NCBI RefSeq assembly: GCF_003018115.1
Contig: NZ_CP027457.1
Length of the DNA: 64,000 bases
Source of the DNA: Escherichia coli
GTDB taxonomy: Bacteria > Pseudomonadota > Gammaproteobacteria > Enterobacterales > Enterobacteriaceae
Reading direction: 5' to 3' (one strand)
Positions 30,601 to 33,600 of the stretch are shown piece by piece. Position numbers: made by a program. Position 1 is the stretch's first letter. Each line of letters begins with the position of its first letter.

Positions 30601-33600
30601 TTTCCCCGTCTCAGTGGGCGGCAATAGGCGTGCTGGGGAGTCTGCTGTTTGGGCTGCTGACATATCTGACGAACCTGTATTTCAAGATTAAAGAAGACCG
30701 TCGTAAGGCGGCACGGGGAGAGTAGGTGATGAACCATGAAGAAATGAATCAGCGCTTCAGTCGTCTGGAAAATGAAATTGCTGAACTGAATAAAAAACTG
30801 TCGGTGCTGATGCCTTCTGAAGATGCAAACAAACGCCGAGATGAGCAGTTTGCTGCGTTTGACGATTATTGTCGGAAAGTGATGAGCAGAAATCTCGCAG
30901 AGTGTTTCAGTATTCATAATGATAATTGCAGTGAGCTGGAATGGGAGTGTAACCGGCCATCCTTTGTTGTATCCGGTGATGACGGGAAAATCACCATATC
31001 AGAAAATGGAAAAGTAACACTGCCATCGCACCAGCACAGTGAGACGCTCATTGAATTTGCCATTGATTACCTGAAGAACAATAAAAAACAGGGGCTGATG
31101 CAGCGCATTGGTCGTTGCATGGGGTATCTGCAGGTAGCCGCTGAGATTGAAGCGCTGGCCAGTGGTGCGGACAAGGATTCAGTTGTGCGGGAGGCTCTTC
31201 TTCGTGAGTTTGACAACCCGCCCTTTAAAAAAGTGCCGGCTTACTGGTTTCATCCCGGACTGACTTATCTGAAAGGGCGGTTTGGGGAGAGGTTATCTGA
31301 ACTTAAGCGATAGTTTATTGAAGAGCCGTTTTTTTTGCAGACAGGCAAAGTTTTTATCCCATGAACAACCCGGGTGACTGAGTTCGTCATTAAACCATTT
31401 GTTAATGTTGTGCTTCAGATGCTGAAGCATCAATGGTGTTAATGTGGTGATAATGATATCCAGAGTTTCTGTTGAAAGCATGCCGTAAGGCTCTGAGAGA
31501 ATGGCCTGAGTGGCCTCGCTGTTATCCGGGATAAGCGCTTTTAATTCTGATTTAACATTTTCGTTCATTATCTGCAAAAACTCTTTGCGTAAATTGTTGT
31601 CATTATTATTCATTTATAAAATCTCATTTGTTGTTACCGGGTGTGTCCTGGTGCCTGTTGATTATATTCATCGTGAGTACCGGATTATATATCTGACATA
31701 TCCAGGAATAAGAGAGCTATAAATCCTGATAAATATCCATGAACGCAAAAATCAAATACGGCCTGTCAGCTGCCGTTCTGGCGCTGATTGCCGCAGGGGC
31801 TTCTGCGCCTGAAATCCTCGACCAGTTTCTGGATGAAAAGGAAGGCAACCACACCACGGCATACCGTGATGGTGCGGGTATCTGGACCATCTGCCGAGGT
31901 GCCATCATGGTGGATGGTAAGCCTGTGATTCCTGGCATGAAGCTGTCGAAGGAAAAATGCGACTGGGTTAACGCTATCGAACGGGATAAGGCACTGGCAT
32001 GGGTGGAGAAAAACATCAAAGTGCCACTGACTGAACCCCAGAAAGCGGGGATCGCGTCATTCTGCCCGTATAACATTGGCCCCGGTAAGTGTTTCCCGTC
32101 GACGTTTTATAAACGAATTAATGCAGGCGATCGCCGGGGTGCATGCGAGGCGATTCGCTGGTGGATTAAAGACGGTGGCAGAGACTGCCGTATCCGCTCA
32201 AATAACTGTTATGGTCAGGTATCCCGTCGTGACCAGGAGAGCGCGCTGGCGTGCTGGGGTATCGACAGATAAGCAGAATATTTTGCTGAAAAATGACGTT
32301 GGCCAACGCGGACGGATAACACGAAATCCTGCGAACTGGCAAAATGTAAGTGAATAACGTCAGGAACATTATTTCACGCAGAGGCACCGTAATGGTGCCT
32401 TTGTCATTTCTGCGCTTCGCACAAGCGTAAATAAACCAAAGAACCTTTCAGGATGAGCCCTGGTGGATAACCGGCAGTGGTCTGGTTAACCCTCTTTGGG
32501 CTGGTTATTCCTGTGCGCAGGGTTCATCACTAAAAGGAAATAACCGATGAATATGATGACCGTGCCGTTTCACGGCGATTCTCTTTATGTGGTTAACCAT
32601 AACGGCGAACCATACGTTCCCATGAAACCTGTCGTTGAGGGAATGGGTATGACCTGGCAGTCTCAACACCGCAAATTGATGGAGAGATTTAAGACCTGCA
32701 TCATCGAAATGATGATTCAGCTCCCCGGTGATACTCAGCGTCGTCTGGTTATCTGTCTTGCTTTACGTAAACTTGCAGGTTGGCTGCAAACCATCAACCC
32801 AAATAAAGTTAAACCTGAAATCCGCGACAGAGTCATTCAGTATCAGGAAGAGTGCGACGATGTTCTCTATGAATACTGGACGAAGGGTTTTGTCGTTAAT
32901 CCTCGTCAAATGAGCGTGATGGAAGAACTCAATCAGGCTTGCGCTGACATGCAACGGGATAAAAACATTGTCAGTGTGTTTGCTACCGGGCTGAATGAGT
33001 GGAAACAGGTTAAAGCTGCGCATGTATCAAAAATCCGCACATTGATAAACGAAGCGAATCTGCTGATTGATTTTGTCCTAGCTGATACAGGCAAAGGGAA
33101 AATAACAAAGGCGGATTGATGGAGAGGTGGCTAATGATATCGGATAAAATCATAACGCTGACAAAGACCATTTGTGTGATTGTCGGCGTTTCATTTTCGC
33201 TAATGATGGTTGCTCTTTTTCTTTCCATAGCCTGGATGGCGTTGAGTTCGGTAGGGCTGGTGGGGTGAGCATAAACCGAATTATTTCCGCGTTTACCGTT
33301 ATTCTGCTGGTGGTCTGTGGTGTGCTTAGTCTGGGGCTGAATCATTACCGTGATAACGCCATCGCCTACAAAGAGCAGCGCGATAAAGCCACATCCATCA
33401 TCGATGATATGCAGAAGCGGCAACGTGATGTAGCAGAACTTGACGCCAGATACACAAAGGAGCTTGCTGATGCTAATGCGACTATCGAAAGTCTCCGTGC
33501 TGATGTTTCTGCTGGTCGTAAGCGCCTGCAAGTCGCCGCCACCTGTGCAAAGTCAACGACCGGAGCCAGCAGCATGGGCGATGGAGAAAGCCCAGGACTT

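Follow-up and report, generated by a model that had tools for sequence, protein, structure and literature searches.

Why should the holin gene S and the endolysin gene R of a lambdoid prophage be separated by two genes that are read towards each other and overlap at their 3′ ends? The question is raised by a stretch of 64 000 nucleotides from Escherichia coli (contig NZ_CP027457.1, assembly GCF_003018115.1; the window, hereafter, is this whole stretch), which matches, at 100% identity, the Stx1a prophage of E. coli O178:H19 strain 2012C-4431 (NZ_CP024289). Between S and R the window holds one open reading frame (ORF) on the late strand, ORF-A, and one on the opposite strand, ORF-B (Table 1). 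A first-pass annotation, in which the positions of the holin stop, both ORFs, the 21-nt overlap, the 125-bp spacer and R all proved exact, had read the two as a convergent pair inserted into a cassette which in lambda has S and R adjacent. The comparisons described here favour a different answer, with a probability of roughly 0.6: the supposed pair consists of two accessory modules, independent of each other, that share an S-R slot which is often filled in the phage-21-type cassettes of E. coli lambdoid prophages. This figure applies to the anatomy and evolution of the locus, and the proposals on expression and function made below are much less certain; the anatomy itself, the homology, the independent presence and absence of both modules and the purifying selection on both are direct observations.

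The lysis cassette is of the phage-21 type, with a pinholin and a signal-arrest-release (SAR) endolysin, and not of the lambda type. The holin gene, labelled 'class II holin family protein' in RefSeq, ends with a TAG codon at 30723-30725 and has two possible starts, M1 and M4; the N-terminus of R is hydrophobic and SAR-like (MNAKIKYGLSAAVLALIAAGASAP). S-R loci were fetched in three ways, via ORF-A, via ORF-B and via the holin. The holin survey comprised 72 informative IMG/VR loci with a holin ≥97% identical to that of the window, and the gap between S and R was filled by a YdfR-family gene in 60 of them and empty in 12, R then starting 4 nt past the holin stop. The filled gaps contained a short DUF1327 gene only (34/72), DUF1327 together with the ORF-A C-domain on the forward strand (11/72), ORF-A alone (8/72), ORF-A-type sequence with ORF-B (4/72, three of which also had DUF1327), ORF-A with an unrelated 95-amino-acid reverse gene of family phrog_10490 (1/72), or another reverse ORF, unannotated and up to 233 amino acids long, that truncated ORF-A (2/72). 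In the phage-21-type cassette the S-R gap is thus normally occupied, and lambda, the yardstick used previously, is misleading here. The cassette had been described as interrupted three times; the antirepressor gene between R and Rz and the rha gene after Rz are present as described, but the filled S-R gap is normal for cassettes of this type. A published survey of 279 Stx phages described the pinholin/SAR-endolysin cassette and did not discuss genes intervening between S and R (PMC8136144).

The two genes came apart in a second survey, of 105 loci fetched via ORF-A or ORF-B. The arrangement S-A-R without a reverse gene, with 36 nt between ORF-A and R, accounted for 44 loci and the long DUF1327-A form for 32; ORF-A-type sequence was accompanied by ORF-B in 11 (in one of these as a DUF1327-plus-C-domain remnant only) and by the 95-amino-acid reverse gene of phrog_10490 in six. 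ORF-B was present without ORF-A in nine loci, and other reverse cargo was present in three, being the ORF of up to 233 amino acids in two and a gene of phrog_2572 in one. ORF-B stood alone between S and R in L012-L015; in L008-L011 and O157:H7 its neighbour was a degraded YdfR start. Insertion of ORF-A and ORF-B together as a functional pair is not upheld by these data, as each occurs without the other. ORF-A-type sequence lay directly 3′ of an S21-type holin and 5′ of a SAR lysozyme, on the late strand, in 96 of 96 loci, the 46%-identical variants L029 and L030 included. Of 5426 complete E. coli genomes, 1118 (∼21%) had relatives of ORF-A and 673 (∼12%) had the ORF-B cassette family, many O157:H7 strains among the latter, and a deeper-homology scan of genome contigs gave three loci only, all in Escherichia or Shigella.

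The O157:H7-type slot (L008; L027 3248-3502) consists of S, 255 nt, a 90-amino-acid allele of ORF-B and R. The first ∼35 nt past the holin stop are a remnant of a DUF1327 start, MNKQYELVVK followed by a stop, so the ORF-B-only arrangement is here the result of a deletion that removed a long YdfR gene.

ORF-A and ORF-B are already catalogued, as hypothetical proteins in RefSeq (WP_096096232.1 and WP_001063217.1 respectively) and, in PHROGs, only in families of unknown function (phrog_1085 and phrog_1853 respectively). ORF-A, which had been said to resemble nothing recognisable, matches phrog_1085 with an E-value of 5.6e-110, over profile positions 117-296 of 296 only, and its homology extends over the C-terminal two thirds of proteins of 287-296 amino acids, many of which are annotated as 'YdfR family / DUF1327 domain-containing'. 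In these long homologues (P0006-P0050) the first ∼110 residues correspond to PF07041 and the last ∼180 are 78-86% identical to ORF-A; hmmscan of ORF-A itself against Pfam gave no PF07041 at E ≤ 0.1. Complete members of the phrog_1085 family combine DUF1327 with a coiled coil and a conserved domain at the C-terminus, and ORF-A is the coiled-coil and C-terminal module of this long YdfR family without DUF1327. The long proteins likewise lie between an S21-type holin and an R21-type lysozyme. The C-terminal domain carries the motifs H-x-H, GRCMGYLQVAAEIEA, NPPFKK and W..PGLTYLKGR, all invariant in alignments A1 and A5, and ORF-A shares with the rest of phrog_1085 in these alignments the patterns GRCMG.LQ.AAEIEA, NPPFK and W..PG..YL. 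A profile of ORF-A run against 1.84 billion representative proteins returned just 43 relatives, none of them fused to an informative domain; of ORF-A the distant ones retain only the C-terminal domain (H-x-HRD, GRCMGLLQVAAEIEA, NPPFK, W..PG..YL), often behind a DUF1327-like N-domain.

ORF-A starts 3-4 nt past the holin stop in every locus examined, and a GGAG-like Shine-Dalgarno sequence lies inside the last holin codons. Owing to this constant spacing co-expression with the holin is plausible, as the first-pass annotation had suggested. The ratio of non-synonymous to synonymous substitution rates (dN/dS) of ORF-A against ten alleles was 0.19-0.46, and against diverged alleles the proportion of non-synonymous differences (pN) was well under that of synonymous differences (pS), by which the gene is evidently under purifying selection. 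The exact 194-amino-acid protein was found on 182 contigs. It is soluble, with an isoelectric point (pI) of 6.0, a negative grand average of hydropathicity (GRAVY) and no transmembrane segment, and its highest 19-residue Kyte-Doolittle mean is 0.76. Scans of ORF-A with Pfam, NCBIfam and PADLOC were empty of meaningful matches.

ORF-B matches phrog_1853 (E 2.2e-44, profile positions 56-158 of 159), a family for which two database searches yielded 35 protein clusters; the named ones were all from E. coli or Shigella and none of the 35 contained a Pfam domain. An in-frame TAA lies directly 5′ of the ATG, so the start is unambiguous. That ORF-B is a real protein-coding gene follows from pN of 0.22-0.24 against pS of 0.67-0.70 between alleles 55-65% identical, which corresponds to a dN/dS of ∼0.15; the range of dN/dS was 0.14-0.21 where dS was unsaturated. 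Its length and the motifs EPYG and W.N.E.S...C.WD are kept across alleles that are 47-77% identical, and the exact protein was found on at least 1000 contigs. The AlphaFold model is a confident, compact five-helix bundle, with a predicted local distance difference test score (pLDDT) of 82 and a predicted template modelling score (pTM) of 0.73. The protein is soluble, with a pI of 7.8, negative GRAVY and neither a signal peptide nor a lipobox, and its highest 19-residue Kyte-Doolittle mean is 1.23. Searches of ORF-B against Pfam, NCBIfam, PADLOC, PDB sequences and folds gave no meaningful match.

Several candidate functions were considered and rejected. A membrane-type holin or antiholin was ruled out for both proteins, neither having a transmembrane segment. 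The O157:H7 member of the ORF-B family lies on a prophage with a PerC-family gene; a PerC-like regulator was ruled out for ORF-B, which has no match to PF06069. A DNA mimic is unlikely, neither protein being strongly acidic. Neither ORF-A nor ORF-B matched any family of PADLOC-DB v2 at E ≤ 1, and their relatives matched none at E ≤ 0.1 apart from a negligible hit of P0038 to PbeC (E 0.018, 11 bits). Profile searches of PDB sequences with alignments A1, A2 and A5 gave chance-level matches only.

The limits of the ORF-B module could be placed by pairwise BLAST. The window aligned with L017, a slot containing YdfR only, as far as 31279, and with the ORF-B-only slots L008 and L012 (69-70% nucleotide identity) from ∼31291 to 31738; these limits, together with the shared 43-nt flank next to R, define a presence/absence unit of ∼31281-31695. 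A repeat search gave no convincing flanking repeats of the cassette. The holin 3′ end resembles the ORF-A/ORF-B junction over 16 nt, but short repeats of this kind are numerous and the similarity is no greater than expected by chance. The overlap of the two genes, 31293-31313, falls within this junction. Proteins of the phrog_1085 family usually end ...YLKGRI*, and in the other allele 11 nt then follow before the ORF-B stop, so that the junction reads 'aaagggcggatataa gttcaggggcg TTA' in other alleles and 'aaagggcggtttggggagagg TTA' in the window. ORF-A of the window has lost the usual stop codon and continues into the tail FGERLSELKR, which produces the 21-nt overlap; the alleles of L001, L005 and L071 have the 11-nt gap and no overlap. 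By this alignment of alleles the overlap is an allele-specific accident and no design feature.

The R side of the slot is constant. The 43-nt R leader was common to all slots with reverse-strand cargo, whatever the cargo family, and that of the window was 79-84% identical to those of L001, L002, L005, L006, L007, L016 and L022 (slot positions 971-1013). Four unrelated types of reverse cargo were found at this one spot, namely phrog_1853 (ORF-B), phrog_10490, phrog_2572 and the unannotated ORF of up to 233 amino acids. The last of these, L002 3564-4265 (-) in Stx2_14040 (LC567818) and L007 2254-2955 (-) in Stx1_14040 (LC567819), truncates ORF-A after '...LAECF' and is crossed antisense by an annotated plus-strand 'hypothetical protein'; it had no Pfam, PHROG or PADLOC match. 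The 95-amino-acid gene of phrog_10490 (L022 3402-3689 (-)) and the 86-amino-acid gene of phrog_2572 (L006 2341-2601 (-)) both lie beside R and are unrelated to ORF-B. The 95-amino-acid protein, whose gene is outside the window, had a weak PADLOC match to PDC-S51 (E 2.5e-5); the 'DUF1823' label that the 86-amino-acid gene bears in GenBank was not supported by Pfam.

In L001 the stretch that separates the R leader from the beginning of the reverse cargo gene contains a GC-rich hairpin, GCCAGTG..CACTGGC (4349-4368 (-)), followed on the minus strand by a T-run; it resembles a terminator or an attenuator placed ahead of the reverse gene. The same hairpin occurs at equivalent sites in L002, L005, L006, L007 and L022, and the window has AT-rich sequence instead. 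On the other side of the leader, R begins M(N)AKIKYGLS.. in loci with a filled slot (window 31739-31760 compared) and MSRKLRYGLS.. (or MSKLRYG, MNRKLRYG) in the 12 loci in which R is directly 3′ of the holin (L113-L179). The N-terminus of R thus co-varies with slot occupancy, a sign that the gene may contain a mosaic boundary in its 5′ end.

Three other explanations of the locus were weighed. The two genes could form one system, for example one of toxin/antitoxin-like or defence type or one in which a lysis regulator is opposed by an antagonist, with expression coupled by the overlap. The overlap in the window allele would fit such a system, as would the adjacency of ORF-A and ORF-B in 11/105 loci of the ORF-A/ORF-B fetch and 4/72 of the holin fetch, and the arrangement is persistent, two ORF-B alleles of only ∼50% identity having a homologous ORF-A/ORF-B junction. 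However, most loci have ORF-A but not ORF-B (44 with the short form, 32 with the long form), ORF-A is paired elsewhere with unrelated reverse genes such as that of phrog_10490, ORF-B occurs without ORF-A (L012-L015) or with a degraded YdfR remnant only (L008-L011, O157:H7), the overlap is missing from three other alleles and PADLOC matched neither protein, all of which make a two-gene system improbable. The frequent truncation seen in the slot (L002, L007, L008 and L016), the deletion and recombination that go with it, the missing N-terminal DUF1327 domain of ORF-A relative to its 287-296-amino-acid relatives and the lost stop codon that lets its frame run into ORF-B could alternatively mean that one or both ORFs are decaying remnants, ORF-A being a truncated long YdfR gene in a defective prophage. 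This is hard to reconcile with the abundance and uniformity of the form without DUF1327, which has 185-213 amino acids in 44/105 loci, always begins 3-4 nt past the holin stop and includes individual clusters with hundreds of members. The dN/dS of ORF-A, the recurrence of both exact proteins on the 182 and at least 1000 contigs counted above and a surrounding prophage whose replication, Stx1a, lysis, head and tail genes are mostly intact also argue against decay, which we consider very unlikely.

It could also be the minus-strand RNA that matters at this position, as an antisense RNA or through convergent transcription that keeps leakage from S, ORF-A and R low in the lysogen, the ORF-B protein being incidental. 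With no terminator found 3′ of ORF-B a transcript could continue antisense into ORF-A and S, and the reverse cargo genes, which are unrelated in coding sequence, nevertheless share one position and one 43-nt flank by R. Purifying selection on ORF-B acts at the protein level, however, and its length and motifs are conserved across diverged alleles; the AlphaFold2 fold is confident and compact and no Rfam RNA family was found within 30400-32000. These observations leave little credence for a role of the RNA alone, and two independent accessory modules remain the preferred reading.

ORF-A would be made from the Q-antiterminated late transcript and would be translationally coupled to S, as the 3-nt gap and the GGAG-like sequence in the last holin codons suggest. 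It would be a cytoplasmic accessory protein that is dispensable for lysis itself, because 12/72 cassettes are without any slot gene, and our preferred guess is that it influences the timing of lysis or has another cytoplasmic function late in the cycle. ORF-B may be transcribed in the lysogen from its own AT-rich upstream region and shut off after induction by the convergent late transcription that crosses to R. The product would be a small cytoplasmic helical protein that most likely acts by partner binding, and by analogy with characterised morons a benefit to the lysogen, e.g. superinfection exclusion, defence or host modulation, is the role that we would guess.

ORF-B had been put forward as a moron candidate and the comparative evidence is favourable. 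Morons were reportedly defined by Juhala et al. in 2000, with HK97 gp15 as an example, and ORF-B appears to behave like one: it is on the opposite strand, it is AT-rich and its ∼415-bp cassette is missing from most related prophages. It is absent where the flanks are adjacent (the 44/105 S-A-R loci), unrelated cargo takes its place in others and its base composition deviates from that of its neighbours, with 38% guanine plus cytosine (GC) compared with 54% in S and R and 51.5% in the whole window. The minus strand has perfect TATAAT hexamers at 31689-31684 and 31666-31661, both with poor -35 elements as read by eye, and a weak Shine-Dalgarno sequence GAGA at ∼31625-31622. 

A number of points weigh against the modules as described and against the functions proposed for them. 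A consensus scan of the window and three other alleles gave no canonical sigma-70 promoter upstream of ORF-B; the first TATAAT alone is kept in the L008 allele and neither is kept in that of L012. No minus-strand terminator, such as a moron would have, was found 3′ of ORF-B within 30700-31293. The junction common to ORF-B alleles of ∼50% identity implies that the arrangement of ORF-A with ORF-B is old and stable, so that a functional link between them still has room. The AlphaFold model of ORF-A is poor (pLDDT 51) and lends no structural support to any role, and no match of either protein points to a biochemical activity. The literature gave no transcriptome, proteome or phenotype data for ORF-A or ORF-B and, apart from an interaction between K-12 YdfR and RNase E, no study of either gene or of the S-R slot.

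The Qin prophage of E. coli K-12 has the gene order essQ-ydfR-rrrQ, with ydfR as a short DUF1327 gene in the slot. K-12 YdfR (103 amino acids) is essentially the DUF1327 domain alone, whereas ORF-A is without that domain. One activity alone has been published for the family: K-12 YdfR binds the catalytic half of RNase E and RNA co-purifies with it (PMC13232886). This binding maps to residues 1-72 of YdfR, in the DUF1327 part that is missing from ORF-A, and the activity is therefore not transferable to ORF-A.

By analogy ORF-A may be compared with the cytoplasmic antiholins T4 RIII and P1 LydB, in that it is soluble, belongs to the lysis cassette, lies directly 3′ of the holin gene and is probably translationally coupled to it; there is no similarity of sequence or fold to either, and the comparison is a lead only. 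The S21-type holin of phage 21 has its own antiholin form, produced by a dual start. A good many cassettes do without ORF-A, S and R being adjacent in 12/72. The bor gene of lambda encodes an outer-membrane lipoprotein and follows Rz; by comparison with it, ORF-B would be expected to be expressed from the prophage. In common with bor and other morons ORF-B is a small gene of the late/lysis region, on the opposite strand, absent from relatives and of deviating composition. Unlike Bor, its product is soluble and helical and lacks both a signal peptide and a lipobox, and the gene lies between S and R, not after Rz. The S-R slot as a whole recalls the hot spots of P2 and P4, at which, as Rousset et al. 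are said to have reported in 2022, variable accessory and defence genes occupy a fixed position: the flanks (S or ORF-A on one side, the 43-nt R leader on the other) are constant and the cargo is variable and unrelated. The reverse cargo of the S-R slot has one orientation throughout, in at least four families, and, in contrast to that of the P2 and P4 hot spots, it is without a convincing PADLOC defence match, the PDC-S51 hit being the best.

A more far-reaching version of this proposal is that the site directly upstream of R is an undescribed hot spot for reverse-strand cargo expressed in the lysogen, with ORF-B as a new small protective factor and ORF-A/YdfR as an unrecognised, widespread cytoplasmic regulator of pinholin/SAR-endolysin lysis; we regard it as speculative and rather unlikely. 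A fixed docking site beside R that gathers unrelated reverse-strand genes is nevertheless a testable lead. In Stx prophages toxin release is controlled through the late operon, so a slot gene that altered lysis timing or the fitness of the lysogen would bear on the virulence of Shiga toxin-producing E. coli and on phage spread.

Table 1. Positions of the S-R slot, its two modules and the neighbouring lysis-region genes in the window
Feature	Position	Strand	Description
S, S21-type pinholin (class II holin)	30510..30725	+	71 aa; PF04971, E 7e-33; left slot border
ORF-A	30729..31313	+	194 aa; ATG 30729 (GTG 30726), 3 nt past holin stop
ORF-A conserved C-terminal domain	30954..31280	+	residues ∼76-184; beta-hairpin then helices
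ORF-A tail FGERLSELKR and stop	31281..31313	+	allele-specific; antisense through ORF-B 3′ end
ORF-B cassette (presence/absence unit)	31281..31695	-	∼415 bp, AT-rich; ORF-B and ∼80 nt upstream
ORF-B	31293..31613	-	106 aa; phrog_1853
Candidate promoter region of ORF-B	31614..31695	-	AT-rich; two TATAAT hexamers, weak Shine-Dalgarno
Spacer, ORF-B to R	31614..31738		125 bp, 36% GC
Conserved R leader	31696..31738	+	43 nt directly 5′ of R
R, SAR-type endolysin	31739..32272	+	177 aa; PF00959, E 2e-23; right slot border
Antirepressor gene	32547..33119		P22_AR_N, P22-type; between R and Rz
Rha-family gene	33911..34453		3′ of Rz

Some further features of the prophage and its relatives were recorded. Between the antirepressor gene and Rz the window has a 49-amino-acid ORF with a long hydrophobic stretch (33119-33268 (+), WP_032295774.1). 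RefSeq lists two frameshifted pseudogenes in the NZ_CP024289 prophage (L003), a DUF4222 domain-containing protein near the integrase end (1887-2133 (-)) and a phage tail tip domain-containing protein (40655-41061 (+)) at the distal end of the tail region, on account of which the prophage may not yield fully functional particles. Rfam matches at the gathering score elsewhere in the window were isrK, directly beside C4 antisense RNA within the early/regulatory region (19678-19866 (+)), STnc100 between stx1B and the SASA esterase gene (27471-27684 (+)), MicL in the host flank (3543-3850 (+)) and ES036 (CssrF) at 7786-7828 (-). In the ORF-B-only prophages L012-L015 the position between Q and S that is usually held by stx is occupied by a gene (3913-4704 (-)) for a 263-amino-acid protein with Enterotoxin_a and Scabin-like ADP-ribosyltransferase domains, which adjoins a gene with a TfpB domain.

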